Both the position numbers and the translations under genes were made by a program. From contig CM119373.1 of the NCBI GenBank assembly GCA_051294905.1, positions 3,164,001 to 3,228,000 of the forward strand: DNA of 64,000 bases, given 5' to 3'. The stretch comes from Botryllus schlosseri. Taxonomy: Eukaryota. Each line of letters starts with the position of its first letter. Within the stretch, counting starts at the first letter, position 1. Below are positions 11,864-57,000 of this stretch, one piece after another. Under the pieces are notes generated by a model that was not told where the DNA came from, did not search any database, and was given only the letters and a program-made list of their open reading frames with translations.

Positions 11864-13120
11864 ATGTCAAATGGAAAATGTTGGCTGTGCCCGTTCGTTG
11901 GGAGTTCGGATCGGATTACAAATCATCTCTTGAAACGTCGCAAGGACCATCCGAGTCTGATTTATACATGCAAGCTCTGTGGAATAGTGTTTCACGATCA
12001 TCATCAGTTAAAAAATCATTGCCGGAGACGTCATAAGAGTCGAACAGAATTAGATTTGAGTGATATGCTCGATGAAACTACTAGTGGAAATAGCTTATTA
12101 GAGGTTATATGGAGTGTGATCAATCATCACATGTCGTTGAAAGTCCTGTCGCGCCCTTGTTGAAAGGCTCAAAGATGATGGCTTACCAGAATTTATTTGT
12201 ATTGATAAACTGTTGTATGTAAATGATCAAATATTTTGCAGCTACCATAAACTGGATGTTTGTACTTTTAATTTCACAATGAATTCATTCGGTATTAGAC
12301 ATAGCAATATCTGTGGGTTGTACTGCATTTATGGTCATGAATTTCAGTGGCCTCAAATCAGTCATATTATTGATGACCAGCAATTTGTAATGACGAGGCA
12401 TGTTGGACATGTGTACTGCTTGTAACGATGGGGATTATCCGTCATATTGATGTTACGTTCAAAATTGTTACATTGTTTTTTTAGAGAATGACGTCAATTC
12501 GTAGAGCCGTCAGTCCGCTGTGATTTAGCTTCTTCAGAAGCAGCTACGCCAGTAAGTATTTGATAAAATTTTGCAATGAATTTAGCTAACCTGTCTGCCT
12601 CAGCAGTCCACACTTCCTCGAGAAGACGACAACTCGACATATCTCCTTGTGGATGATATGGTAAATATCCACATTATTCTAGTAGGACACTAACTCATAT
12701 TTTCATCAATTAACAGCCACCATGCAGTATCAAGCACCTCGATCCTCCGATGCCCTTGCCGGAATTCAGTGTGAAAGTTGAACTAGCACTGAAGCAACGT
12801 ACAGCTTATGAAGTTATCAACCTCGTAGTGGAGATGTGTGCAAATCACATCCTGAACAATGGTGACATAACCAATAAGTCATCGTATCGAAAGTTTGGAA
12901 AGGCACTCGTGGAAAAGTATCCGTGCTTAGGATCTACCTTACAGAACCCCCCCTGAGTAAAGTAAACTGGTCTCATTGGTCTAAATTCATTTGCACTGAT
13001 CATCTCGTTTTTTTTTCTAGGAAAATTTCAACACGAAACTGTCTCAGAGATTGAGAGCGCTCAGACTTCTCAGACAACATCCTGCTTCCCTTAAAAACGC
13101 TTCTATGTCAGCAGTGTCAG
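11864..13120 (+). pseudogene. EnSpm/CACTA-associated gene fragment: two C2H2 zinc fingers plus SAMD3-like region
   Basis: CWLC...H and CKLC...F...LKNHCRRRH fingers; SYRKFGKALVEKYPCL...NPP(stop, likely TGG>TGA)|GT..AG|ENFNTKLSQRLRALR resembles accessory proteins of animal EnSpm elements (recalled, not searched). Confidence 0.55.
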
Positions 13121-13125
13121 GTAAA

Positions 13126-13878
13126 TTACTGCGAGTATATAAAAGTAGTCCGTTAATGTGGGCCAGTTTAATTACAACATAGTTTGTACTGTGAGTATAT
13201 AGAAGGAGTCCGTTAATGTAGGCCATTTTAATTACAACATAGTTTGTACTGTGAGTATATAGAAGGAGTCCGTTAATGGAGGCCAGTTTAATTACAACAT
13301 AGTTTGTACTGTGCGTATATAGAAGGAGTCCGGTAATGTGCGCCAGTTTAATTACAACATAGTTTGTACTGTGCGTATATAGAAGACGTCTGTTGGTGTG
13401 CGCCAGTTTAATTACAACATAGTTTGTACTGTGCGTATATAGAAGTGGTCTGGTGGTGTGCGCCAGTTTAATTACAACATAGTTTGTACTGTGCGTATAT
13501 AGAAGGAGTCCGGTAATGTGCGCCAGTTTAATTACAACATAGTTTGTACTGTGCGTATATAGAAGAAGTCCGGTAATGTGCGCCAGTTTAATTACAACAT
13601 AGTTTGTACTGGGCGTATATAGAAGTGGTCTGTTGGTGTGCGCCAGTTTAATTACAACATAGTTTGTACTGTGCGTATATAGAAGTGGTCTGGTGGTGTG
13701 CGCCAGTTTAATTACAACATAGTTTGTACTGTGCGTATATAGAAGTGGTCTGGTGGTGTGCGCCAGTTTAATTACAACATAGTTTGTACTGTGAGTATAT
13801 AGAGGTGCTGGTCTGGTGGTGTGCGCCAGTTTGATTACAACATAGTTTGTACCGTGCGTATATAGAAGTGGTCTGGTG
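13126..13878. repeat. 60-bp minisatellite, ~12.5 copies
   Basis: Unit AGAAG(17 variable nt)CCAGTTTAATTACAACATAGTTTGTACTGTGCGTATAT repeats in register with the 60-bp lines. Confidence 0.97.
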
Positions 13879-14060
13879 CAATGTTCCCTCTAAGCTGCGC
13901 ACGTGCGCAAATGCGCAGTGCTGAAACGGTCTCTGCGCACAGAAAATCTAGGCTGCGCACAAAAAATCCGAAGTGATGACTTTTTTTTTTAATCGTTGCG
14001 CACTCTTGTCCAAGGCACCGCGCAGGCGCTCTGACTCGAGAAAAATGAGAGGGAACATTG
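13879..14060 (+). mobile_element. Short MITE (CAATGTTCCCT family), flanks not duplicated
   Basis: TIR CAATGTTCCCTCT / AGAGGGAACATTG; left flank GTCTGGTG differs from right flank CCAGGGGT. Confidence 0.85.
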
Positions 14061-33790: not shown

Positions 33791-35031
33791 CTGGAAGGTA
33801 AATACATAATCCGTTTATTCCGTGGTCCACAATTATTTTGACCCTATCAAAGAGATAAATTGTTGGCGGCACCCCGGCACTGAATCAACTTTTTGAGTTA
33901 TCACCATTTCAAATACAGGTAACAAAATAGCGCCTAATAAGTTTTACAGTATAGCGCAGTGATTGCCAACTTTTTTCCACCCACGTACAATTGAATGGTT
34001 TCATACAGTGCTCGCGTACCACCTATATAAGTTACGCGCGCCAAAGGCTGTAAAAATGTTTCTTACGTGTTGAGGTGCCGAAAGCAGCGAGAAAGAAAAT
34101 AAACTGCCCATTTTAACTCTTTCGACGCCGAGCTAAATTTGACGATTGTCTTCAAAACGCCGCGATTTTCACCAAATAACCCCAATTTCAACCGATCGTA
34201 ACTTCGTCGCTACCTTAGCTACCGAGACGTACCTACTTCCGTATTGTAGCCGCAAACGATATATATCTAATGATGCGTAACGTGCGTTGATTGGTGCTGT
34301 CGTGCTGCTTGGACAGGCTTCGGTACGAACTGAAGTTTTGCCGATTTCAGGCGCGCTGCTGCCAAGGTATGGATTTTGTTGGTTTTTCTATGGTACTTAT
34401 AGATTAGCTGTGGCGTTGTAAATTTCACAGAATATTCTTATTATATTATATATTGATAATATATTATCATTTAATCGTTAATTCCTTTTCGATGGCAATG
34501 CGGAGGTTTAGAAACTTCGTAAAATACTGCTGCCGACAAGATCTTCGGCCGTCGATGCTTCAAGGTTATCATTGTGACGTCAAATCAGCAATAATGGCTC
34601 GAAATTTTGACTTCTGCTAGTACCGGTACTCAAGTTTGTTTTTCAGGCGCAGTAACATACCGGCGGAGCCCATTTGTGTACGATTATAAGCATCGATCTG
34701 CACAAAAACATCATTATTTGTCACCGTTGGGTCTTCGTCATCTCCCGATGCAATTTTACGTTTGAAAAACTTGAATAAATACGTATATATTGGTGTGAAG
34801 TCCAGTGGCGTAGCAGCCACTTGGCGGTTTTGGCTCTGAGCCAGGGGCGGCAGGCTCCAAGGGGGCGGCAAAATGAAGCTGCACAGTGAGAGAGAGATTG
34901 AGAGAGATTCTATTCTATTTCGCCTGCACAACCGAGATGTTTAGGCGACGGAGATGCGATACGGACTTCATAGTAAGATCAACTAGCCTGCACCCCCGTT
35001 TTTGTCATCCGTCATTGCTGACCGCCTAGCG

Positions 35032-35632
35032 CAGGGGCGGGCAACTTCTCCAGTCGGCGGGCCGGATATAGGAAAATTAAGTACTTGGCGGGCCGGATTG
35101 ATGAATCGATACATTATTCGCCCATATATCTACATATACAAGGAATAAATCGTACCTAATGTATTTTACCGACAGCAATGTCACTGCAAAGCCGTATATC
35201 GCCGATAATGACGAAGACAATGTAGATTTGAGAACAGCATTGTTATACAGGCGCCGTCTGTTTCTCTCTAATCAATTAACACAAGGTGCAATCCTTAAAT
35301 AGATTTCAAGGCGTTCTATATGCCCGGTACCCACAATTTACCGAGATATCAATTCATTAGGGTTGAGTACATGGTAAATATATATCGGTATACCGATACT
35401 GCAAGTCTTGCTTCGATGAACTTACGCGTGAGCTCTACTCTCGCACAGTGCGTACACAAGTATATAATAACATACAGTCACTATAATTTGACGCTTACGC
35501 AAGTAGCGCGGTATCTCGGCGGAGTGGCGCTGCGGGCCACATTATCATGTAAGACGGGAAACTGTCCGCGGGCCGGACAAAATCCCTTCGCGGGCCGGAT
35601 CCGGCCCGCGGGCCGTATGTTGCCCACCCCTG
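35032..35632 (+). mobile_element. hAT-type MITE (GCGGGCCG family); related copies at ~36090-36961 and 52733-55500
   Basis: TIR CAGGGGCGGGCAAC / GTTGCCCACCCCTG; TSD GCCTAGCG (35024-35031, 35633-35640); interrupts a SINE. Confidence 0.9.
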
Positions 35633-37470
35633 GCCTAGCGGGATAACCGCTGATACCAGTTTTCGAGTCATTGGTTTGACCCGGCCGGGGGGTCGAACCC
35701 ACGACCTACCGACCAAGAAGCCTTACGCATCACGATTACACTATCTCGCTCGGCACAGTGTACACAGCCGGCTAAAAGAAACGTAATTGGTAGTCCTATA
35801 GCTGGCGTCCAGTGAGCTAAAATTTAATCAAACAGGTCTCAATCGGAAGCTATAGTGTCGCGCTGATTCCGAAAACACGAATTAATATGTTAACATGGCA
35901 ACGAAACCACTCCGAAATAGCCGTCAAGGCCGATTGTTCGGAGAGTTCGCGGAAAAAGGAGAACGCCTGGCGAACAATCAGAAGATGCTTGCGTCAGTGT
36001 TGTTGAAGAAGTTAGACGATGCATGTTTCAAGCTCTGGGCAGATTTAAACTTGAAGCCGAAACTAGGTTTACATGCACACCACTTAAATCAGGGGCGGGC
36101 AACTTCTCCAGTCAGCAGGCCGGATATAGGAAAATTAAGTACTTGGCGGGCCGGATTGCTGAGTCGATCCATTATTCACCCATTTATCCACATATGCAAG
36201 GAATAAATCGTATTTAATGAATGTATTTTTTTAACGACAGCAATGTCACTTCAAAGCCATCTCTTACCGATAATGGCGATGACAATGTGGATTTGAGAAT
36301 AGCGTTGTCATACAGGCGCCGCCATGTCTGGTTCACTCTGATCAATCAACACGCAGTGCAATCCTTAATTAGGGTTTCAAGGCGTTCGATAAGTCCAGTA
36401 CCCAAAATTTACAAATATATCAATTCACTAGGGTTGAGTACGTGACGAGATACCGTCGTTGTTCAACTATGTGGCCTAATTAGTGGCAATATTGAATTCA
36501 TGAGGCCTGCGTCCTCTACGAAATTTGAAAAGTATCCCGAGACCCGTTTTGAGTTGGCAACCACTGGCATAAGCGGTGTCTTACAAGCTTAGAATTGTGC
36601 CGTGCTACATGTCGGCAGTTACGGAATCAAAAATAAGAAATATCAGCCTGGTGTAAATGACCATTGTAGTCGACAAACACTATGATTACCACAAACGACA
36701 TTAGGGTTGAGTACATGGTAAATGCGGATAATGCAAGTCTTCTCGCTTGTACGAACTTACACGTAAGCTCAACTATCGCACGCTGCGCATGCGCATACAC
36801 TACACGTATATAATAACATACAGTCACTAAAATTGGACCTAGTAAGCAAGTAGTGGGGAATCTCGGCAGACTAGGGCCGCGGGCCATATTATCATGTAAG
36901 ACGGAAAACAGTCCGCGGGCCGGACAAAATCCCTTCGCGGGCGGCAAGTTGCCCGCCCACGACTTAGAGATATGTTTGGATTTTTGAATTCCCACGCGCT
37001 GCTGCAAAGCGAAAGTCACAATGTATTCACCAGCGCTTTTAGAAGCACTTGCGACGGCGAGGTGGACTTTTCGGAGCTAGCTGCGAATATTGTCACGCCT
37101 TATGGCTGGCTTATACCTTCAAATTAGGGATCTTATATATCAGAAGATTGCTAGCTTTTCGTACAAACCAATATGAGGCCTCTAGGACGTACACAAATTA
37201 AGTTATGATCATATGAAGTTGTTCAACTTGAGATTTTAAATGGGTCAAGAGGCTGATGCGGAGCAGTGAAACCACGTTTGATCGTAGTGCAACAGCGTTT
37301 AATGTTTTACCATGGTTAGTTAATGCAAAGCTACTTGATTCGACACGATATTTAATCTCGTGCTCGTGTCTGAAACTTTATCTGACCATTGGTGTTTCAA
37401 TTGCGAGCTGCGTGAGGAGCTTCTCAAAGCTCAAACTGATTAAGCCTTATTTACGTTCTACCATGAATGA

Positions 37471-39146
37471 CTACAGGGTTGGTGCGATGACATGCAAAAT
37501 AAGGTCAAAAACATGCAAAATAAGGTCAGTCGCGACATGCAAAATAAGGTCAGTCACATGCAAAATAAGGTCAGTCGCGACATGCAAAATAAGGTCAGTC
37601 CGCGCATAAATCCAAATCTGTACTTCAATTACAAATCCAACTCTTTTTCTTATGAAAACGAAATTCAAAATATCTTTCCTGTATAGTAGCCTACTTTCAA
37701 CATTGAAATTCCTTATCTATCCTAAATCTTAAGATGTTTCAATCAAAAGATAATCATGATTTTCTTGATTATGAAGTCAGTCGCATGTACAATATTATTA
37801 TCAGTCCGCGCATAAATCCAAATCCTTATTTCAATTACAAATTCAACTCTTTCTCTTATGAAAAATAAATTTAAAATATCTTTCCTGCATAGTAATTTCA
37901 TGATTGACATTCCTCATCTATATCCTAAATCGCTGAAGGTGTTTCAACAAAATATAATCAGACGATTATTACGATTACGAGGTGAGCCGCATAAACAGTA
38001 CGCGTATATATCCAAATATTTACTTCAAATCCAATTTTTTTTTCTTATGCCACTGGCCTTAGTCTGCACTCTTCATGTGGCGACTGACCGTGTTTCGCAT
38101 GCGACTGACCTTATTTTGCATGTGACTGACCTTATTTTGCATGTGACTGACCTTATTTTGCATGTGACTGACCTTATTTTGCATGTGACTGACCTTATTT
38201 TGCATGTCGCGATTGACCTTATTTTGCATGTGACTGACCTTATTTTGCATGTCGCGATTGACCTTATTTTGCATGTGACTGACCTTATTTTGCATGTGAC
38301 TGACCTTATTTTGCATGTGACTGACCTTATTTTGCATGTCGCGATTGACCTTATTTTGCATGTGACTGACCTTATTTTGCATGTCGCGATTGACCTTATT
38401 TTGCATGTGACTGACCTTATTTTGCATGTGACTGACCTTATTTTGCATGTCGCGATTGACCTTATTTTGCATGTGACTGACCTTATTTTGCATGTGACTG
38501 ACCTTATTTTGCATGTCGCGATTGACCTTATTTTGCATGTGACTGACCTTATTTTGGATGTGACTGACCTTATTTTGCATGTGACTGACCTTATTTTGCA
38601 TGTGACTGACCTTATTTTGCATGTCGCGATTGACCTTATTTTGCATGTGACTGACCTTATTTTGCATGTGACTGACCTTATTTTGCATGTGACTGACCTT
38701 ATTTTGCATGTCGCGATTGACCTTATTTTGCATGTGACTGACCTTATTTTGCATGTGACTGACCTTATTTTGCATGTCGCGATTGACCTTATTTTGCATG
38801 TGACTGACCTTATTTTGCATGTGACTGACCTTATTTTGCATGTCGCGATCGACCTTATTTTGCATGTGACTGACCTTATTTTGCATGTGACTGACCTTAT
38901 TTTGCATGTGACTGACCTTATTTTGCATGTGACTGACCTTATTTTGCATGTGACTGACCTTATTTTGCATGTCGCGATTGACCTTATTTTGCATGTGACT
39001 GACCTTATTTTGCATGTCGCGATTGACCTTATTTTGCATGTGACTGACCTTATTTTGCATGTGACTGACCTTATTTTGCATGTCGCGACTGACCTTATTT
39101 TGCATGTTTTTGACCTTATTTTGCATGTCATCGCACCAACCCTCCT
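37471..39146. mobile_element. Foldback/Mutator-like element with modular tandem-repeat inverted arms
   Basis: Inverted arms start AGGGTTGGTGCGATGACATGCAAAATAAGGTC (37475) and end at 39143; CATGAATGA duplicated at 37462-37470 and 39147-39155; interrupts the hAT remnant at RSTMND|DRLS. Outermost 3-4 bp do not match. Confidence 0.75.
38098..39128. repeat. Tandem array of 47 units: 21-bp TGCATGTGACTGACCTTATTT and 24-bp TGCATGTCGCGATTGACCTTATTT
   Basis: Directly visible; 34 short and 13 long units counted from the repetitive translation. Confidence 0.97.
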
Positions 39147-39639
39147 CATGAATGATGATCGGCTATCAGCTCTATCCATTTTGTCTACAGAAAGAGACTA
39201 TACGTTCAAAAACTCGAATTTGAGGGTATTATCGCTGATTTTGTTTGAAGCGGCTATTGATTTTCTATTTGCACAATACAGTCGTTCGGTATTTATTGTC
39301 TTTATTATTTTTGGCCTTATCAACGTTGAGGCTGAGACGCGGCATATTATTTGTAATTATTTTTATTGACAAGTTGCTTGAACATGAATCTATGTCGAAA
39401 TTTGCTGCGGTCTACTTAGGGGGGTGGCACTTTAAGCGTTAGCCAGGGGCGGCAGCACATGCTGCTACGCCAGTGGTGAAGTCTGTGTCGTCGCAGTACA
39501 TGTACTGCCTTGGTGGCTTCAGTACATCCGTATATCAACTTTACGCGCGATGTGTCGCTAAGGATTGGAGATAATGATGTAAAATGTCTTTAGGTATTGG
39601 CATCTGTTGGAACTCATTACCGTCGTGGAAATATATAAC

Positions 39640-45261: not shown

Positions 45262-45509
45262 AGTATTGACGTCGCGGACTCTGGAAAAGCACTTAAGGCG
45301 AGGCGAGCAAAGGCCTGGGCCGCGGCAAGACGGCTACATTGCCTCTTCCCCTCAAGGGCCTCACCCCGCATTTTCCGTGCCACTGTCGAGCAGGTTCTTC
45401 TCTACGGAATAGAGGCACTCACGCTGACAGAGAAGCTGGCTAAGACGCTCAACGCCAACTACGATGTACTTCTCCGCTACGCCCTCGTCATCCACCACCC
45501 GGAGCACAT
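45262..45509 (+). mobile_element. RTE-like non-LTR retrotransposon, ORF C-terminal fragment (left half)
   Basis: IFRATVEQVLLYGIEALTLTEKLAKTLNANYDVLLRYALVIHHPEH is typical of the post-RT region of RTE-clade LINEs; continues in frame at 56609. Confidence 0.75.
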
Positions 45510-45731
45510 TGGGCTCGAAAGTCACGTGACTGGGGCCAAACCATTATCTTAGATAGGCGCTGCCCGTGTTAATGTCCGATATTGGTCTGTTTTCAATTCG
45601 TATTTTCTGTCTTAGTGAGGTTGTTTGTAGTATAGTTTGAGGTTTTATGGTATCATCGTAGTATAATTAGCGAGTTTCAGGGTTTTTAAATGGTTACTAG
45701 AATGTATTATGTTATTTTTCAGTCGCTCAAA

Positions 45732-48397
45732 ATGCCACAGTGTTGCGTGCCACCATGTCGTAATAGAAGAGAAACCAATCCAGAGTTGTCTTTCTATCGA
45801 CTTCCGAAATGCAAGAAAGCCATGGGGAAAGTGGCTGAAATTAATAAGGCAAGGGGTGGATGATAAATTGTATTTAAATTAAAGGCTCTGCTTTTTGTAT
45901 GCCAAGACCGTGTAATCAATGGCAATTATTTTGAGATGAACGACTTGAATTATTTTTTTTGAAATGTATTTTAGGATAGAGAAAGGGTTTACGCCAGGGA
46001 TTCTCAGCCCTTTTTTGGCCGTGGCCCATCTCTAATCTTAAAGTCATAATCCCGTACAATGTGTGGTAATCGACGGCGCCGATATGCCTATTTCTCTAAA
46101 ATATGCGCATTTTTGTCCCAATTTACTGATGAAATTGAAATATAACATCTCGGGGCATCGGACAATTTTCTAGTTGAATGAATATCTTCCAACACACGAC
46201 CAACGAAATAATCTTGGGCTCCTTCTAGCTCCCCCTATCAGGGGTTTGGGTGCGGCAGTTACGGCTCTGGTAGATTATATGCTAAAACTTCTGAGTATTT
46301 TAAGATCGTCCGCGGCTCCATTCGCTTCACGTAACACAATGATCGAATTCCCGCATAACACTGTGTGATTGGGATTTTAGTTCCACTATTGAGGGGAATA
46401 GTATAATCATTCTGGGCCAGCTTCAAACAATTCATTTGTGAATGGGATACTACAGAGGAGTGGAGAGATTTTCTTATGTTGCACAATGTACATTGTAGGC
46501 CTATGTCACGTAGGCCTACTGAACCAACTGAAGTTGCGATGTCGGAATATTCAATCCATGATACTATCAATTTGTGTGACTCTTACATTATGTACATTGA
46601 TTTCCAGGCATGACATTTTAAACAGATTCCAAATATTATTGCGCTCCGCTGATACCTCAATCCATTACTATTCGTTGCGGTGGTGCAGTATACCTCAATC
46701 AGAAGTTGCTAATAATTTGCAATTAAGGCCATTTTCAACTTACAATAATACGCACTGCCGAAGTACAGTAAATCCCATTTTCACTTCATTCCGAGTTTAT
46801 TGCACACCCCTTGCAACGGCATACGACATTATGACCCTGCCGAAATACCTGGTTACTTCAGCATAACCTTCCAGGTATTATATATGCGAAATTATTTTAG
46901 TTGCTGTTAGCCATAGGTAGTCATAGCTAGTGTAATAAGCCGCCGTTTCTGCCTCCCATTTTCGTCTTGAAATGCTGACTCCATACGTACCACTACGTCT
47001 CATCAGAGTCCGATGAAAAGCTTTACTAATATGAATTTATTTTTAGTGATTAACACAACAAATGTTTCTAAACTTACATTATTTCTAAAATTTTCCCAAT
47101 AGCTCTGTGGCCCACCTCAAATGATCTTGTGGCCCACCAGTGGGCCATGGCCCACCCTTTGAGAACCCCTGGTTTACGCCAACGATAAATACAAGAATAT
47201 GCAGCTGGCATTTTCCAATGGGGAAGGTGGCAGGACCTACTAGATTTGAATGGAACGAAGGCAAGAGAATAGACCGCAGTAGCCCCGAGAAAATAATGAG
47301 GATATCCACCCCAAAAAACATTCAGATTTGTTGACCACAAATAGTGAATGTCCTACACCTACAAGGATACATGCAGAAAATGATGATGTGGAAGAAATGA
47401 AAAAACAAATATCTATTTTCAGGAAACGTGTGTTAGCTCTTAATGAGAAAGAAAAAGAAGAATTACGTTCAGACAATATAAAGTTGAAACAGGCCAATCA
47501 CAAGCAATTCATCCACAGTTTCAAAGATAGTGCAGAGAAGATAGCTATGTATACTTCGTAACCGGACAAAAAAAACTTTCGACATAGTTGTTGCAATGAT
47601 ACAGCGGTTTACGGTTAAGTATCATTCGAACTGGAATGTTAAAATCCTCTCAATCGAAGACCAAGTGTTGCTAACTCTGATGAAACTAACACTCAACTTG
47701 CCAAATCTAGATTTGGCTGTTCGCTTCAATGTTAGTACAGGCACTGTTACCAATGTTTTTCTAAGTTTGATTGAGGTCATGCATGCCATTTTCCACACAG
47801 TTATTATGGTCAAAAAGTTTCCGTCATTGCTCAAATGCCAGATGAGTGCTCCAGAGTGTTTCCGTAGTTTTCCTAACTGCAGAGTAATTTTAGATTGTAC
47901 TGAAGTACGAACAGCCAAACCCGATGATCTTGGCAAAAATTGTCAAACGTTTAGCCACTACAAAAAAGGTAACACACTGAAAGCATTAGTTGGAGTCGCA
48001 CCTAATATGGAACGATAAGTTTGTGTCAGAACTTTATGCAGGCTCCACGTCAGATGAGGCCATTACAAAAGATTGTGAAATCCTTGACTTATTGGAACCT
48101 GGGCACCTGATTTTAGCTGACAAGGGGTTTGCAATTCACATCATACTTCCTCCAGGAGTTACTGTGAACCATCCATCATTTTTAAGCAATCCTCAATTCA
48201 CTCCTCAGGAAGTATCAGCCAACAAAGAGTTATCGCGAGTCCGTATTCATGTTGAAAGGGCGATACAGCGAATTAAAGTTTTTCGTATCTTGGAGTTCAT
48301 TCCACACCATTATCGACACCTATCCAGCAAGATCTTTCAGTGTGCTTCATGCTTGGCAAATCTGCAGACCCCAATCATCCAAAATGCTTATAAATAG
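45732..48397 (+). pseudogene. THAP + HTH + DDE (Harbinger/ISL2EU-type) transposase, disrupted
   Basis: THAP: MPQCCVPPC...SFYRLP (45732-) and FTPTINTRICSWHF (split by a MITE at 45995-47171); HTH: LSIEDQVLLTLMKLTLNLPNLDLAVRFNVSTGTV; catalytic motifs ILDCTEV, FSHYKKGNTLK, ILADKGF, RIHVERAIQRIK. Frameshift near 48010 and stop near 47560. Confidence 0.9.
45995..47171. mobile_element. hAT-type non-autonomous element inside the THAP exon
   Basis: Termini CAGGGATTCTCA / TGAGAACCCCTG; 8-bp TSD GTTTACGC at 45987-45994 and 47172-47179. Confidence 0.85.
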
Positions 48398-48741
48398 TTA
48401 TTTTATTCATATTATGTACCTATTGTTTTTTAGGCCAAATCCCTTGTTTATAGTTGATAACAATCCTACTCTTTCTTTAGATACTAATGCTTCTGAATAT
48501 ATAATGAATCAAGGTAACGATGGATGCAAGACTGCGGTGTCAAACTGTCCTGTATTGAATACTTCAACTTGTCAAAAGGTTGGCTGCAATATAGCCTGGA
48601 TAACACCGAGATCATAAAAGATAACTTTTCTGGATCATCGCGACGTATTGCATGATGTGCTTGGTGACTCTGCCAAGAACTGCACACTGGAAGACATTTT
48701 CTTCTTTATTGCCATAAAAAAAACACTCGGCTGCCCTGCAC

Positions 48742-49705
48742 CAGTGTTGGGATGACTCGAGTCATGACTTGACTCGAGTCAGACTCGAGTCACATTTTCG
48801 TATGACTTGACTTGACTCGAGTCACTTAGCTAAAATGACTTGACTTGACTTGACAAGCGTATCAGAAATGTGGATTGACTCGTGACTCGGAGCAAAATTC
48901 ACGAGTCAAATTCAAGTCATCAAGTAGGCTAATCGGTTTCGATCAAATTCCCTGTATCTTGCATATGTTCGGGTTGTTCGCGGAACGCTGGTGTAACCTG
49001 TGAGAGCGACCAATCATTCAATGATCGTGCGTTTTACTGAGCCTCCATTGATCGCAAACGAAGTGCTCGAAGCTTACAACCTACGTTGCCGTAAACTGTA
49101 TAGTATAGTTAAGTAATTTAATAGCAAAATGTCTCTTTCTGTTCTGTGTTCTTAACTTAACCAAACCTCTTGTTTTACTGAAATTTAATTCGAAAATAGT
49201 TTATATAGTCCTCAACCATTGGCGCAGGCTCGAATTGTATCATGTCAATTTGCAAAAGGGTAATGTATTGCATCCTATCTATTCGTTTCTCTATTCTCTA
49301 TTTTGTTTGGTAACTATAAACTGAGGCTGTGCAATTACTTACGTAGCTTATTAGTTCTACTTATATGTGAGCGATACAGCGCCTTACTTGCGTGTATATT
49401 TACCACTATATTCGTTCATCGGTTCAAAATCAATGACAACCCAATCTGTATTTCAGACAGCTAGCAAAATACAATGACGTAATCACGCCTCATACCTCGA
49501 AAAGGCAATTTGACTCGAATTGTGACTTGACTCGTGACTTGACTGGACTTGACTCGACTTAACTCGAGTCACCTCCAAAAATCGACTGACTTGACTTGAC
49601 TCGAGTCACCTTCGAAAATCGATTGACTTGACTTGACTCGAGTCAAAATGTGCAATGACTCGAAATGACTCGTGACTCGAAGGTAGTGACTTGATCCCAA
49701 CACTG
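48742..49705. mobile_element. hAT-type MITE with GACTT/GACTCGAGTC subterminal repeats
   Basis: TIR CAGTGTTGGGAT / ATCCCAACACTG; TSD CCCTGCAC at 48734-48741 and 49706-49713. Confidence 0.9.
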
Positions 49706-50129
49706 CCCTGCACCCCATTGGGAACTTGCTATGGCATGGGGTTATTGTATGGAAGTGGTGCGAACAATTCAAACACCTACCAACTTTTGAAGTCGTCCCC
49801 ATGTGCAGTTGCAGAACTTGGTAGACAGACCGCCGTGATGTCGACAAGAAGCAACACCACAGCTACTGCATGTCAGGACTCAGTGACAGCCACATTGCCG
49901 GAACTATGCTCGCTTCTACAAACTTGCACTGTATAAACAGTCCCCTTCGTTTTATTGCTCGCCCAATCCCATGCCAACTCCACCCCGTGTAGTCCACCTT
50001 TTCCATTCCTTAATTCAGCAAGCAGACCTAATCTGGGACCAATACTTTTTCATTCTTGGTATGAAGCAAATACATTTTCAAGTTCTGAATTTGTTGTCAA
50101 ATTTATTACGCAACATTTTACCAGCACTC

Positions 50130-52095
50130 TCAGAGTTCAAGCGATAGCAGGAGAGGTAAAATGGTATTCCTATAAAAGTCTCTCAAGAGAATTAAATTGT
50201 TCTCCCAGTCACTATCCTTAGGTATTCTCTGGACCAACAGTTCTGTTGGTGTCCAAACCACAAAATGGCATAACTCCGCGTTTGCCAAGTATAAGCCACC
50301 CTGCACCTGGTCATAGTACTCGTGATTTTTGTCGAGTACCAAATTATCCCCAGCTATTTTCAAAAAGAAGTCCTTTTTCGTCACGGCCAAATCCATCAAG
50401 GAGGTTGATTTCGCGGAATAGGGACACTTCACCTCTATTAATTCATTTTCATCAATGATGGCGTCGAGTGATGTTCCAAGCATGCCAGTGGGATCGATAC
50501 ATAACCCACATTGTGATATTTCACAATTTACTTGCTGGGCATATTGATGCAGGGCGTCGGATTCGTGCACGACTCCCCACTTTATAGCCTGTAATGATAT
50601 TGTCGAAGGTTTACAGCCTGCAACTAACCTACGTTATCTTAATTTGTGTTTAAACCAAGTGTCATAATACTTACTGGAGCTTTGACTGCAGACGAATATT
50701 GACCAAGTAGCGTCTTCATCAATGAGTCAGAGTAACGACCTCTTTTAATGGACCGAAGTACCTTTCCAAAGTTGCTTGATGTAACTCTACCTTGTCTTAT
50801 TTGGTTCCTGCAATTGGTTGAGAAATACTGTGTGTTCACTCTCACGATGAAATGGTGTGTGCTATGTGAAACCGCTTAACTACGGCTCAATGACCCGCCA
50901 TTACAATTGGGTGAATATACCAAAAAGTCATTCATTTACCAGATCTGGTTGTTGTGTTGGCCTTTCGTCAAAGTTAACACGGAAGTTTGCTCATTACCGT
51001 CCAAACGGAGAAGTGATAATATTAAGCCTATTCGCTCCTTCTCATTGTCGACACTGTAAGTTTCTTGCAGAAAATGTGCAACTGTTTTGTCATTCAATGT
51101 CTGTAAGAGGGGAGAAATTAGCATCAAAACTGCAACATAAAACATAGCACTTACAGCAGCAGGTCCTTTGGATAAGAGCCAACCAAATCCTGTAGGTCTA
51201 TTCAAATTTGCTAATCCCTCTTTGAAAACTAGGATGTCATCGTCGTTGACGTCACGATCCGTAGTAGCTGAAATATATTGTTCACGTCGAAATACAATGC
51301 TGTATGCCATTAAAAAAAAAACTTATACCTTGTCCTTGATTTGGCCAGATTTGAAAAATTCTTTTACCAGCGCTTTCAATTTACTTTCTCGGCTTTAACC
51401 ACTGGCATTCAACATCGGTGCGTGTTATGTTTTTGCATAGCCAAAGAAGAACCGCAGCCATATGGTGGCACTGGAATTGGCCATTTGGACAGCCGCAATG
51501 TGCGCGACAAATCTTCTGATCAGTAATGTGCAGGATCTGAGACAAAACCATGTCATCTGAAAGAGAGAGAGAGATATGGTATTCTTTTTCGCCTGCGCCA
51601 CCGAGATGCTTCGACGATGGAGATGCGATACGGCCTTTATGGTAAGGTCATCTAGTCTACATCCCCGCTCCATGCTATCCGTGATTGCCGAGCGCCTAGC
51701 AGGATAGCCGCGGATACCAGTTTTCGAGTCTTTGGTCTGACCCACGACCTACCGATCGAGAAGGCGGACGCACAACCATTACACTATCTCGCTCGGTATG
51801 AGTCAATAAGATGCCAGAGGAGTTGTTACTCAAGTACAAGAAATGCTGTAAATTTCCACTGAATTTCAAGTAGAGGTAATCTTTCACAAAGCTTTCTGGT
51901 AATTTAGCTGTTACCAACCTCAATTTCGTAAACTTTCTGCTCGTAGCTGTACTGAATACGGCCCACCGCTCTACCGTCACCACCATACTTCGCTGATACT
52001 AAATGATCGCTGTCTAAAGCATTTTGACCTCTTCTAACCAGATTCGGGTCAGTTTTAAAGAAATCACATATCGTAAAAGTAGTAACCAAATCCAT
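50130..52095 (-). pseudogene. SWIM zinc finger + YqaJ (lambda-exonuclease-like) protein of the ISL2EU element, multi-exon, probably disrupted
   Basis: Exon 1 MDLVTTFTICDFF...RRGQNALDSDH (52095-51919); exon 2 from 51536 HCGCPNGQFQCHHMAA (SWIM CxC..CxH); later exons TKGQHNNQIW, RQGRVTSSNFGKV, WGVVHESDA, GTSLDA, IEVKCPY, YYDQVQGGL, CHFVVWT (YqaJ motifs). Apparent frameshift near 51380. Confidence 0.88.
51561..51796 (-). mobile_element. tRNA-derived SINE, family C, in intron 1 of the YqaJ gene; other copies ~34888-35753 (-), ~56069-56361 (+), head ~20925-21000 (-)
   Basis: Head CCGAGCGAGATAGTGTAATGG, central GACCAAAGACTCGAAAACTGGTATCCGCGG..CTAGGCGCTC, (CT)n tail; B-box GGTTCGA(T/C)CC intact in the other copies. 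Confidence 0.8.
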
Positions 52096-52957
52096 CTGAA
52101 AGGAAATACATTGTATCACTTATACTGATATACTATACGGTAAATGTAAGTGTTACTGTTACTAAATGTCTAATCCTAACGAACTACCGTCTCTCTATAC
52201 TTTACCCTCCATTTGTAAGTAAATAAATTCTTCTTGCAGCCACTGGCGTAGCAGCATGTGGTGCCGCCCCTGGCTCTCGCTGAAAATGCCCCCCCCCCCC
52301 AGCAAATTTCGACATAGATTCATGTTCAAGCAATCTTGTCAATAAAAATATTTACAAATAATATGTCGCGTCTCAGCCTCGCCGTCTCAACGTTAATAAG
52401 GCCGAAAACAATAAAGACAAGAAATAGTGAACGAATGTGTTGTGCAAATCGAAAATCAATAGCCGCCTCAAAGCAAAATCAGCGATAATATCCTCAAATT
52501 CAAGTTTTTGAACGTAGTCTCTTTCTATAGACAGAATGGATAGAGCTGACAGCCGATCATCATTCATGGTAGAACGTAAATAAGACTTAATCAGTTTGAG
52601 CTTTGAGAAGCTCCTCACACGGCTCGCAATTGAAACACCAATGGTCAATGGTGTCGAATCAAGTAGCTTTGCATTGACTAACCACTGTAAAACATCAAAC
52701 GCTGTTTCACTGCTCCGCACCAGCCTCTTAACCAGGAGCGGGCAACTTCTCTAGTCGGCGGGCCGGATATAGGAAAATAAAGTACTTGGCGGACCGGATT
52801 GCTGTAACGATACATTATTCGCCCATTTATCCACATATACAAGGAATAAATCGTATTTAATGAATGTATTGTAACGACAGCAATGTCACTTCAAAGCTAT
52901 TTCTCTCTGATAATGAGGAAGACAATGTGGATTTGAGAATATAGCATTGCCACACAG

Positions 52958-54885
52958 CAGTGGTCTGGAACCTATGGCTCGCGAGCCAAATATGACTCTT
53001 TTAGTGATAAGATATGGCTCTTTGCCAAATATTTATTTTTGTACTGAATTGCTCAATGTTGCAGCGACTTGTTGGTAAATTTTCATCACGATCCGAATAA
53101 TTATTCCCGTGGCAGTATAAACATGTCTTTGAGAGGTAAAGGCAACGCTATCTGCAGGTTTAGGAGCTCGAACTGTTTTCAAAATCCTCAAATTTAAGTT
53201 ACTGTTGCGCCGACGACCAATATCACCCGCGAAAACGATATATCCTACCCGCTTCGAAATCTTGAATTGCGCGATACGTTGATTGATACAAGAGAATAAC
53301 AGAAATGGCGACACCAATATGACAACGCAGTTTTCAAATACACATTGTCTTCCTGTTTTACGGCGCGAAATGAACTGCCGTGGACATGACATTCACAATT
53401 ACAAACTCGATTTACAAACAACGTTCTTGATTGGCAAGTAGCTCTACCGGCGGTAAATAGGCGTCTATAGCGCAATGTTATATGTTACGGCTTTGAGAAT
53501 TGAGAAGTCGATCAGTATTTAAATTTTCGGAATCAGTGCCACAGTTACATTGGATTTTAATATCAGTTATAATAAATTCCAAGCTATTTACGATGAATTG
53601 CGTTATCAATGGTGAGGCATATGGCCCGCCTGTGCATTACCACTAGTTTCGCGTTTTATTTTCGATTAATACAGGGCCGGCCAACCCGTGGCCCGCGGGC
53701 CACATTTGGCCCGCGAGAAGGTTTTGAGTGGCCCGCGAGGTAATTTCCGAAATTACTAATATTATCAAAATTGAATGGCAGAGATTGTGAGCTTACAAGT
53801 CTAATCAAAAATTTGATCAGCTTGGCCGCAACACTTGAGATGTGATGACTAAAATATCAGATCCGACGCATTGGCAGATCCATGAGCCAGTCACATTTTG
53901 GTAGATCTTCGTACACTACAATAAAGCAGAATAATTTGCGATAGATTTATCAAAAGTAAAAATTTGCTACACGATTCGCGCAACATGTTGTCACTCGATT
54001 TCTTGCTATTAATGTTGTTGCCCCTTTGTGAAGATGAAAGAACGCCTAATGTATCAGATCGAGCTTAGCTATATTCGCCATAACGAGACAAAGTGTCGTT
54101 CAACCTATGCGACCTTGCTTTTGCGATCGCAGAAAGACCATCGACGATGAAACCTAGGCACAAAATGATTGACGCATGTTGGTCGAAGCTTTCGATATCG
54201 ATATGTCCATTGTCCAGGTGCCGAATAGTCCAGTCCTTGCAAACTGAGCCCAGCGATATACAGCAGGCCCGCTATATAGTCAAGTGACAATATGATTGAC
54301 CTATGAACTTCGAAAAATTTTCGCGCTTCGCGCGGCTAGTGGCCCGCGCAATATTTCGTCAATCAAATGTGGCCCTTTGGCTGAAAAGGTTGGTCACCCC
54401 TGGATTAATAGAATGCAATAAAATAAAATAATAAAATGCAAAATGTGGGAATTTGAGTGATGAATGTTCAAAATCTAGTCTTTCATGAACATCAATAGAA
54501 AATACCAATAATAATTGAACGTTAACAGCTTAGATTGGGTAGGCCTATATATAGATTGCTGTAGTGACCATGGTTGGCTCCCCCTACGCATGTGATCATA
54601 GGTTCTCGCATTTATAAGGAGCGTCAAGGCGAACCTACGTTCTCGTAACTAAAGTTTTGCATGCTCAAGTAAGGCAACCATCATGATAAGTTCTAGTTTT
54701 TACAGAGCAAATGTGGTGCACACGACGAATCCCGTGTAGATAGTTCGAATGAATACTACCATGACATCAGAAATTTTCAATTGTGACGTAATATCTGACT
54801 GACATGCATGGCTCTTTGAGAGGTAAAATGGAAAAAAATAAGGCCAATATAGCCCTTCAGACAAAAAAAAAGTTCTGGACCACTG
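52958..54885 (+). mobile_element. hAT-type MITE (TGGCTC family), nested
   Basis: TIR CAGTGGTCTGGAAC / GTTCTGGACCACTG; TSD CCACACAG/CCATACAG; homologous to 22226-22851. Confidence 0.8.
53672..54402. mobile_element. hAT-type MITE (GGCCCGCG family), innermost insertion
   Basis: Termini CAGGGCCGGCCAACC / GGTTGGTCACCCCTG; TSD GATTAATA (53664-53671, 54403-54410); related to 7682-8326 in reverse orientation. Confidence 0.85.
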
Positions 54886-56608
54886 CCATACAGGCACCGC
54901 CATGTCTGCTCTCTGATCAATCAACAATCCCTAATTAAGATTTCAAGGCGTTCGATAAGCCCGGTACCCTAAATTTACCAAGATATCAATTCATTAGGGT
55001 TGAGAAGGTGACGAGATAGCATCGTTGTTCAACTGTGTGGCCTTAATCTCGATATTGAATTCATGCGACCCGCGTCCTCTGCGAATTTTGAAAAGTGGGC
55101 CGCGACCCGTTTTAAGTTGGCGACCCCTGCCAAACGCGGTGTGTTGCAAAAGCCTAGAAGTGTGCCGCGCTACAAGTCGGCGGTTACGGAATCAAAAACA
55201 AGAAATATCAGCCTGGTGTAAATGATCATTGTAGTCGACAAACAGCATGATTACCACAAATGACATTAGGATTGAATACATCGTAAATGCCGATAATGCA
55301 AGTCTTCTCGCCTCGACGAACTTACGCGTAAGCTCAACTCTCGCACGATACGCAGTGCGTACATGCGTATGTAATAACGTACAGTCACTAAAATTTGACC
55401 TGGTAAGCAAGTAGTGGGGAATGTCGGCTAACAGGCGCCACGGGCCACATTATCATGTAAGACGGAAAACTGTCCGCGGGCCGGATCCGGCCCGCCTCTG
55501 CTCTTAACCCTTTTAAAATCTCAAGTAGAACAATTTCATATGATCATATCTTAATTTGTGTACTTCCTAGAGGCCTCATATTGGTTTGTAAGAAAAGCTA
55601 GCAATCTTCTGATTTATATGATTCCTAATTCAAAGGTATAAGTCATGACAATTTTCGCAGCTATCTCCAAAAAGTCCTCCTCGTCGTCATGAGTGCTTCT
55701 AAAAGCGCTGGTGAATAAATTGTGACTTTCGCTTTGCAGCAGCGCGTGGGAATTCAAAAATCCAAACATATCATTTCAGTGATGTATGCCGGTAAACCTA
55801 GTCTTAGCTTCAAGTTTAAATCTGTCCAAAGCTTGAAACATGCATCGTCTGATTGTTCGGTAGGCATTCTCCTTTTTCTGCGCACTCTCTGAACAATCGA
55901 CCTTGACGGCTATTTCGGAGTGGTTCCATTGCCATGTTAACATATTAATTTGTGTATTCCGAATCAGCGCGACACTAGCTTTCGATTGAGACATGTTTGA
56001 TTAAGCTCACGGGACGCCGGCTATAGGACTACCAATTACGCTTATTTTAGCCGGCTGTGTACACTGTGCCGAGGGAGATAGTGTAATTATAGAATGAAAA
56101 ATGTTTATAAAGGTTTATAAAATGTTTACATTGTATAGTGTAATGGTGATGCGTCCGGCTTCTTGATCGGTAGGTCGTGGGTTCGATCCCCAGCCGGGTC
56201 AGACCAGAGACTCGTAAACTGGTGTCCGCTAGGCGCTCAGCGATCACGCAGGAGAAAAAACGGGGGTGCAGATTGGATGACCTTACTATAAAGTCCGTAT
56301 CGCATCTCCGTCGTCAAAGCATCTCGATGGTGTAGGCGAAAAAAAAAACATATATCTCTCTCACAGTGCAGCCTCATTTTGCCGCCCCATTGGAGCCTGC
56401 CGCCCCTGGCGCAGAGCCAGAACCGCCAAGTGGCTGCTACGCCACTGCTTGCAGCTAGCCCTTTCGTTACACGAACACCAGAATTGATGAGAAACTCCGA
56501 ACAGTGGCACAAATTGCGAATTGAAAATGCGTTCACAGAATACCAAAACAAGCGCTTGGACCCAAACAGCGGTTGTTATGAAAACAAGTCACGTGACTTT
56601 CGAGCCCA

Positions 56609-57000
56609 ATGTCCACCATTGCATTGCGCAAACTCACAAGAACGGTACCATGCCGCTTGTTGGCTGCTGAACGACGCTTCCGCCTAATCGGTCATCTAGT
56701 GCGGCATCAAGACGATCAACCAGCCGCCGTCACCATCAACCACATTCCGACGGAGCCATGGCGCAGAGGTGGCTGGAATAGAACCACATGGCGCTCGACA
56801 ATAGAGACCGAACTAGCGCAACGCGGGCTATCGCTTGAAGACGTCCACGACCGCCCACGCCGGAGGCGCTTAAAGGCCTCTGCACACCGAGCTCGCGACC
56901 CGATAAAACGAGAGAATCGCGCCTGTCTGCGACTGGACCATGCAGACCGGAGTCGCCGGCAACTCGCAACATGCCGTCTGCGACAGGGTTGCGCAACAAT
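56609..57000 (+). mobile_element. RTE-like non-LTR retrotransposon, ORF C-terminal fragment (right half)
   Basis: MSTIALRKL...ERRFRLIGHLVRH...PWRRGGWNRTTWRSTIETEL..RGL matches the RTE C-terminal RRLxxxGHxxR and RxRGRPxxxW motifs; right end approximate. Confidence 0.75.

Follow-up and report, generated by a model that had tools for sequence, protein, structure and literature searches.

A decayed ISL2EU transposon in Botryllus schlosseri retains the state preceding a histone capture in its sister copies

Transposons of the ISL2EU group belong to the PHIS (PIF/Harbinger-ISL2EU-Spy) superfamily and include, e.g., ISL2EU-1_CS, IS4EU-1_BF and IS4EU-2_DR (PMC4482050, PMC4122938, PMC9179366). ISL2EU-1_CS is 4382 bp long and encodes a 454-aa transposase; the terminal inverted repeats (TIRs) of the group measure 6–259 bp and usually start with GG (a tendency, not a rule), and the target determined from 25 families is A|AT|T (PMC4482050). 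ISL2EU elements that combine a THAP-DDE transposase with a YqaJ gene are already known, and the function of their second open reading frame (ORF) is stated to be unknown (PMC4482050). In this work we analyzed a stretch of 64,000 nucleotides from B. schlosseri (GCA_051294905.1, contig CM119373.1, positions 3,164,001–3,228,000; hereafter the window, numbered from its first letter), for which an ISL2EU-type transposon carrying an exonuclease of poorly understood role had been predicted from the sequence alone; the published statement on the second ORF bears out the remark about its role. The element is almost certainly a full-length, decayed copy from an autonomous ISL2EU family of low copy number (here called family B) that was inserted at AT in a high-copy repeat and was later hit by three TIR elements. 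It is thus a dead member of a known group, and it retains a region that was replaced by host histone sequence in several sister copies.

The element resembles ISL2EU in its AT target-site duplication (TSD), short TIRs, core of 4.5–4.7 kb, transposase with THAP, HTH_Tnp_4 and DDE_Tnp_4 domains and YqaJ second gene. Its TIRs enclose both genes and at 22 bp fall within the size range of the group. The TSD, the domains, the boundaries and the second ORF with YqaJ therefore support the predicted identity. Family B differs from the described members in that: (i) its TIR starts with TGGG, not GG, and according to the empty sites the T is not derived from the target; (ii) its target is Y|AT|R, not A|AT|T; (iii) it encodes SWIM, which is general in homologues although the accessible parts of the ISL2EU descriptions do not name it (PMC4482050, PMC4122938, PMC9179366); (iv) it has an inferred GC-AG intron, a family-wide intronic short interspersed nuclear element (SINE) and a histone-capturing sub-lineage. 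PIF/Harbinger elements sensu stricto have a 3-bp TWA TSD and a Myb/SANT second ORF, in contrast to the 2-bp TSD and the SWIM-YqaJ second ORF of family B, while Spy elements insert in AAA|TTT without the duplication seen here. The TIR motifs of the family were not found in three text-form supplements of PMC4482050.

The perfect 22-bp inverted repeats lie about 11.1 kb apart and enclose two convergent genes. None of 20 shuffled windows gave a 22-bp inverted repeat within 15 kb, so the pair is not a chance match. Since all ends read AT+T+GGG, the boundary could be assigned only with empty sites, which were sought among copies of the high-copy repeat that hosts the element. The best 40 matches listed for each flank had seven loci in common, and at all seven the matches to the two flanks overlapped by exactly 2 nt, as read from coordinates. 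Therefore, insertion duplicated the target AT, and the T is the first base of the element (TGGG...CCCA); a Spy-like blunt insertion in ATT|AAT without a TSD is ruled out by the same overlap. Of 36 paired elements, 35 had AT at both sides; the base ahead of AT was a pyrimidine at 74 of 82 ends (C 35, T 39, A 8, G 0). Identical ends also enclose both genes in three other copies (L056, L063 and L066). Both the TIR pair and the AT duplication of the original prediction were thus confirmed, together with the position of the genes between these ends elsewhere in the genome.

The left TIR holds a 10-bp palindrome with a CACGTG core, which we take to be similar to a CLEAR/USF-type E-box; most copies have an extended TIR with a 14-bp palindrome around CACGTG. 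About 156 TIR ends scatter such sites over the genome, and they could drive both inward-facing genes. A subterminal second motif of the TGGGGCCAA type, a candidate THAP binding site, is present at both ends (window 45532–45540 and ~56563–56571) at unequal distances from the TIRs. An 11-bp deletion directly after the left TIR is private to the window copy. The flanking repeat presumably resembles the end of an ORF of a retrotransposon without long terminal repeats; Pfam gave no such match.

The family transposase (majority of four family copies, open frame) consists of 451 aa encoded by two exons and contains the DDE triad D284/D359/E404. Pfam recognized HTH_Tnp_4 (E 1.3e-14) and DDE_Tnp_4 (E 5.7e-9 and 5.2e-24) in fragments from the window. 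Pfam THAP did not match the unspliced window fragments of 39 and 27 aa, and the spliced family protein scored 112 bits against a self-built profile of 19 THAP-bearing homologues. The intron was tentatively assigned to the GC-AG type because GC is the only donor that preserves the frame and the THAP motif. In total, 854 homologues were found; they are unnamed THAP-HTH-DDE proteins paired with YqaJ genes. The best is 65% identical, and on this basis, i.e., from protein homologues only, it is plausible that family B is uncatalogued.

The second gene, ORF2, encodes an open family protein of 415 aa in six exons (majority of four copies), with canonical splice sites at 39 of 40 positions. In window fragments Pfam revealed YqaJ (E 1e-8) and, marginally, SWIM (E 2.4e-4; 21.0 bits at a cut-off of 19.6). 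The predicted arrangement, an intron-containing THAP-HTH-DDE gene on the plus strand facing an intron-containing fusion of SWIM to a YqaJ/lambda-exonuclease fold on the minus strand, was therefore recovered for both genes. The ORF2 profile aligns residues W24, R28, S35, E85, S117, D119, E129, K131 and Q157 of lambda exonuclease, including its 5'-phosphate pocket formed by R28, S35, S117 and Q157 (PMC3239189). All aligned catalytic and pocket residues are retained in family B, and they are invariant or nearly so in sets of 54 and 74 homologues. A structure model of an oyster ORF2 homologue (md45804cf4868; predicted local distance difference test score 84.5) matched LHK-Exo at Z 16.8 (root-mean-square deviation 2.6, 170 aligned residues), lambda exonuclease at Z 16.2 and the Epstein-Barr virus alkaline nuclease at Z 15.4. 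Hence lambda exonuclease and LHK-Exo (PMC3239189) share with ORF2 the fold (Z 16–17, oyster-homologue model), the catalytic D/E/K and the R/S/S/Q pocket, and ORF2 differs from them by ~200 extra N-terminal residues including SWIM. Residues 1–99 of the oyster model resemble the SWIM region of ZSWIM8 (Z 10.0, profile E 3e-5), and the likeness to this cullin adaptor reaches beyond the zinc knuckle. The ratio of non-synonymous to synonymous substitution rates (Ka/Ks) of ORF2 was 0.27–0.32 in comparison with older relatives and 0.33–0.55 within the family, similar to the transposase (0.39–0.56).

SWIM-YqaJ proteins of ~415–435 aa were found in oysters, corals, fish and insects. Both SWIM and the PD..ExK motif are present in 41 of 47 full-length ORF2 homologues (54 minus 7 transposase rows), so that the fusion is not a special trait. 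At several loci of anchovy and Crassostrea virginica, transposase and YqaJ gene bear successive accession numbers; an example is the anchovy pair XP_063045654.1 and XP_063045655.1. The nearest named fish homologues of both genes, 48% and 37% identical, likewise adjoin in anchovy. Judging from these sequences, the pairing of transposase and YqaJ genes is general, and the window copy has ordinary ISL2EU anatomy.

Both genes of the window copy are damaged (Table 1). Exon 1 of the transposase bears a 1-bp insertion; in total, five indels shift the frame of its gene, one stop codon lies in frame, and 1177 bp are inserted in the THAP region. ORF2 is cut short by a nonsense codon at residue 110 (exon 2). 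The copy is a dead, decayed full-length element and lacks the two intact ORFs of a potentially active ISL2EU element, contrary to the suggestion that it is near-complete and autonomous. Nor does it offer a unique handle for resurrecting a two-component system, as intact annotated gene pairs exist in other animals. Excision of all four segments proposed as insertions leaves a core of 4491 bp, in agreement with the ~4.5 kb expected. Three of the four stand as insertions, each with an 8-bp TSD and an empty site among the sister copies. The remaining segment, a SINE-like repeat, was present in all five other family-B copies examined and absent from family A (see below) and from the older relative L069, and is therefore not a lesion of the window copy.

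Table 1. Features of the ISL2EU family B copy in the window.
Feature	Position	Strand	Basis
Left AT target-site duplication	45508..45509	.	TIR mapping, empty sites
Left TIR, 22 bp, 5'-TGGG start	45510..45531	+	Inverted-repeat search
Transposase exon 1, THAP N-terminal half	45732..45848	+	Family copy comparison
Transposase intron, inferred GC-AG type	45849..45974	+	Donor restoring frame and THAP motif
Transposase exon 2 (rest of THAP, HTH_Tnp_4, DDE_Tnp_4), interrupted and frameshifted in window copy	45975..48397	+	Pfam, family comparison
Non-coding TIR insertion, 8-bp TSD, inside THAP coding region	45995..47171	.	TIR/TSD; site empty in L056, L066 and C1 copy
Spacer between both stop codons, 760 bp without insertion	48398..50129	.	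Family comparison
TIR insertion with internal short repeats, 8-bp TSD	48742..49705	.	Empty site in L063
Ancestral ORF2 3' region, AATAAA at +23 and +174 past stop	49833..50125	-	Sister-copy comparison
ORF2 exon 6, YqaJ/lambda-exonuclease core; E272, S303, D305, E315, K317, Q357 (415-aa family numbering)	50130..50588	-	Pfam, profile
ORF2 exon 5, W..R/TSS motif of 5'-phosphate pocket	50675..50807	-	Family comparison, profile alignment
ORF2 exon 4	50940..51100	-	Family comparison
ORF2 exon 3	51155..51267	-	Family comparison
ORF2 exon 2, SWIM finger (CxC..CxH)	51329..51536	-	Pfam, family comparison
SINE-like repeat in ORF2 intron 1	51561..51796	-	Copy comparison
ORF2 exon 1	51919..52095	-	Family comparison
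Deleted hAT element, 8-bp TSD, upstream of ORF2	52241..56447	.	TSD, relic domain
Right TIR, 22 bp	56587..56608	-	Inverted-repeat search
Right AT target-site duplication	56609..56610	.	TIR mapping, empty sites

By the length of its TSD, the insertion in the THAP region would be hAT-like. The large element upstream of ORF2 contains a relic of a hAT dimerisation domain near 52520–52650, and nested within it are TIR elements at 52958–54885 and 53672–54402 and a second SINE copy at ~56135–56362. A rearranged second copy of this hAT element with its nested repeats, 80–88% identical, was found ~18 kb upstream at 34803–37470 and 39147–39475. It should be mentioned that the window also contains tandem arrays at 38058–39143 and 13007–13906 (units of 21/24 bp and 60 bp), the first of which recurs in inverted orientation at 37475–37600. 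The SINE-like repeat owes its label to size, tail and dispersion, as ARAGORN detected no tRNA in it. Its CT-rich tail (51537–51580) stops ~25 nt upstream of the acceptor of ORF2 exon 2 and may act as a pyrimidine tract, which could explain the family-wide tolerance of the insertion. A third gene or a second SWIM relic, suggested by eye in the spacer between the genes, was rejected: Pfam gave nothing below E 0.02 across 12 frames, and tblastn with 214 homologues gave no match.

To see how the element is distributed, we scanned the 495-Mb genome with a 21-nt piece of the TIR, allowing at most one mismatch. This revealed 156 matches (80 forward, 76 reverse; none with the reversed control), 100 of which were listed with their places. 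From the listed places we fetched 35 stretches between facing TIR matches, and all 35 had both ends. Family B comprises ~9 loci with 88–96% BLAST identity over the transposase region, among them loci at C3:13.66 Mb, C3:0.94 Mb and C10:3.39 Mb. Of the 35 fetched elements, 32 belong to the other group, family A, whose members are 3.7 kb long and 64–79% similar to the window copy, in patches. Most of the 156 matches appear to belong to this non-autonomous family. It has no DDE core, either in its majority sequence or in any of the 32 pure elements, none of which matches past residue 285, and since the majority of 21 copies carries stops as well, family A was ruled out as an autonomous partner. 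In its interior (~1200–2300 of the 3.7-kb majority) most of the DDE region and the spacer are replaced by sequence without a homologue match among the comparison proteins. An older relative, L069 (G000:C8:25357000–25361200; 79%), has ORF2, no SINE and no detectable DDE core, and was used as an outgroup.

One locus, L061 (G000:C3:6993377–7000418), forms one unit whose left end is of family A and whose right end is of family B, with AT at both sides. It contains a family-B copy with a histone piece (see below) inserted at approximately position 1098 of a family-A copy, and this junction is shared with the C1 copy (L002/L067, C1:876.5–881.1 kb). L061 seems to have transposed as one composite, and we infer from the AT around its mixed ends that one transposase accepts the ends of both families.

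Family-B copies differ in the 3' region of ORF2. Four loci, L056, L066, L061 and the C1 copy, carry ~800 bp of the host's H1/H4 histone repeat in place of the sequence that occupies 49833–50125 in the window; of the captured piece, L061 and the C1 copy retain only parts. Histone-bearing copies lie, among other places, at G000:C7:19623785–19629296 and on C13. The captured piece is 88% identical by BLAST (92–94% without gaps) to the 5808-bp tandem histone array on C8. Its content is a convergent pair of 3' ends: the tail and stem-loop of H1, then the spacer, then the stem-loop and the greater part of H4. The array itself (L068, G000:C8:28416200–28422600) consists of tandem units with H1, H4, H3, H2B and H2A, and more divergent variants (78–81%) are located at C1:6.16–6.19 Mb and at the start of C6. 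As the differences between the captured H4 and the C8 unit are mostly silent, the piece may come from a different or older variant of the array.

The uncaptured state is found in the window, in L063 and, by match coordinates only, in a copy at C3:13.66 Mb. Two older relatives share part of the original sequence, and the histone state is therefore derived. The four histone loci group in a single clade with bootstrap 100 and 25 diagnostic sites. Of 18 scored comparisons, outgroups agree with the window in 15; the branches of the histone clade are shorter than those of the uncaptured copies, and the clade is the younger group. Four independent transpositions of this clade were considered and reduced to three, because the C1 and C3 copies share a left junction in the family-A copy; the four loci thus represent three independent insertion sites. 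The replacement starts 4 nt past the ORF2 stop and deletes both AATAAA signals of the ancestral region, so that the H1 stem-loop now lies at +232 and the next AATAAA at +901. On the other side, the H4 stem-loop is located 741 nt past the transposase stop.

Animal multicopy Pack-TIRs (PMC8277862) likewise carry a host fragment in a TIR element, with short microhomology at the junctions and later spread by transposition. The sister clade, though not the window copy, has an identifiable parent in the C8 array and spread to several sites as these elements do. Unlike them, the histone carrier kept both genes, and its cargo consists of the convergent H1/H4 3' ends that replaced the proximal poly(A) signals. 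A template switch during donor-break repair best explains how one sub-lineage acquired the fragment and kept transposing. Probably the fragment is inert filler, and ORF2 uses the distal AATAAA or the clade was mobilised in trans. The junction microhomologies of only 2 nt and 1 nt are typical of Pack-TIR gap filling (PMC8277862), for which capture and subsequent transposition are documented; neither the H1 nor the H4 piece has its 5' end, the distal AATAAA survives, and the pieces are decaying by indels. Moreover, with Rfam Histone3 the gathering score was reached by three captured H4 stem-loops and by no H1 stem-loop, nor by any in the native array. In a far less probable scenario, a single template switch swapped the converging 3' regions for H4/H1 ends, the transposon mRNAs would use the stem-loop/U7 pathway and be expressed in S phase, and the capture would be adaptive. 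Expression in S phase would place a sister chromatid at hand for the gap repair proposed below to be promoted by ORF2, and this would explain the youth of the clade. What speaks against filler is that both stem-loops fold and are correctly oriented, that the younger clade includes L056, in which both frames are open (one ORF2 splice acceptor is altered), and that its internal branches have seven synonymous and five non-synonymous changes (p 0.015 for both genes pooled; p 0.11 for ORF2 alone).

In its active form, the transposase would bind the 22-bp ends, excise the element and insert it at Y|AT|R with a 2-nt stagger, as we infer from the DDE triad, the TSD and the flank counts. Family B, or a relative with the same ends, would also have mobilised the more numerous family A. 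Given the retained residues and the purifying selection observed, ORF2 is probably a DNA exonuclease that is catalytically active in the 5'-to-3' direction, carries a SWIM adaptor domain and is needed by the element. Its job can be assigned only tentatively, with donor-break resection as the leading candidate: ORF2 would resect 5' ends at the donor site, homology-directed gap filling from the sister chromatid would follow, and the copy would be restored. As a whole, the explanation that combines a decayed family B copy, an active exonuclease and donor-break resection is the best one and reasonably likely. Several points weigh against it. The structure comes from a homologue, not from family B ORF2 itself. 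The Ka/Ks method takes no account of transition bias, and when this bias was modelled (neutral synonymous share 0.25), no branch class within family B reached significance for ORF2 alone (p 0.07–0.25). The element encodes no annealing-protein partner, which also sets it apart from lambda exonuclease and LHK-Exo, and host resection enzymes exist. Microhomology gene capture is common in TIR elements without a nuclease (PMC8277862), so that the histone capture does not single out ORF2. Finally, A|AT|T has been reported for ISL2EU (PMC4482050), whereas the preference here is Y|AT|R.

Instead of acting at the donor break, ORF2 might be a subunit of a two-part transposase that cuts or trims the non-transferred strand at the element ends, which we regard as unlikely. 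TnsA acts in this manner beside TnsB in Tn7, and the PD-(D/E)xK fold of ORF2 would suit such a role. A Mutator-like transposase domain (PF20700) is fused in 12 of 94 YqaJ matches. KolobokE and KolobokD (PMC9587614) are also DDE transposons with an accessory exonuclease, which in KolobokE is lambda-like and fused downstream of the transposase, and the KolobokD exonuclease is proposed to degrade transposition intermediates; these elements differ from family B in superfamily and in their TTAA TSD. However, the best fold matches of ORF2 are processive exonucleases with a 5'-phosphate pocket, and the mobility of family A in trans is compatible with either model. TnsA was absent among the 50 fold matches listed, which does not in itself exclude a two-part transposase. 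Still less likely is a mainly non-catalytic helper resembling the Myb-like ORF1 of Harbinger, with end binding and nuclear import as its functions and SWIM as an adaptor. PIF/Harbinger transposition requires both proteins, with ORF1 binding the TIR and importing the transposase (PMC2836001), and the likeness of the N-terminal 99 residues to ZSWIM8 fits an adaptor; yet the near-invariant catalytic and pocket residues of the homologues would not be expected of a helper, and the transposase carries THAP and HTH domains of its own. Donor-break resection thus remains ahead of end processing and of a helper function.

The literature, judged on titles and abstract openings, yielded no test of the function of the ISL2EU second ORF, and among the matches listed there was no transposon borrowing histone-type S-phase mRNA control. 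The window copy makes the question of the second ORF no easier than do the intact annotated pairs of other animals. Its added value is that of an ancestral reference, which gives the junctions, the direction and order of events, and the lost signals. What is new from the window is the uncaptured state itself, from which the direction and order of a histone capture in an autonomous transposon, together with the signals lost in it, can be read. If the captured stem-loops are used, the transposon would have borrowed the S-phase mRNA control of its host.

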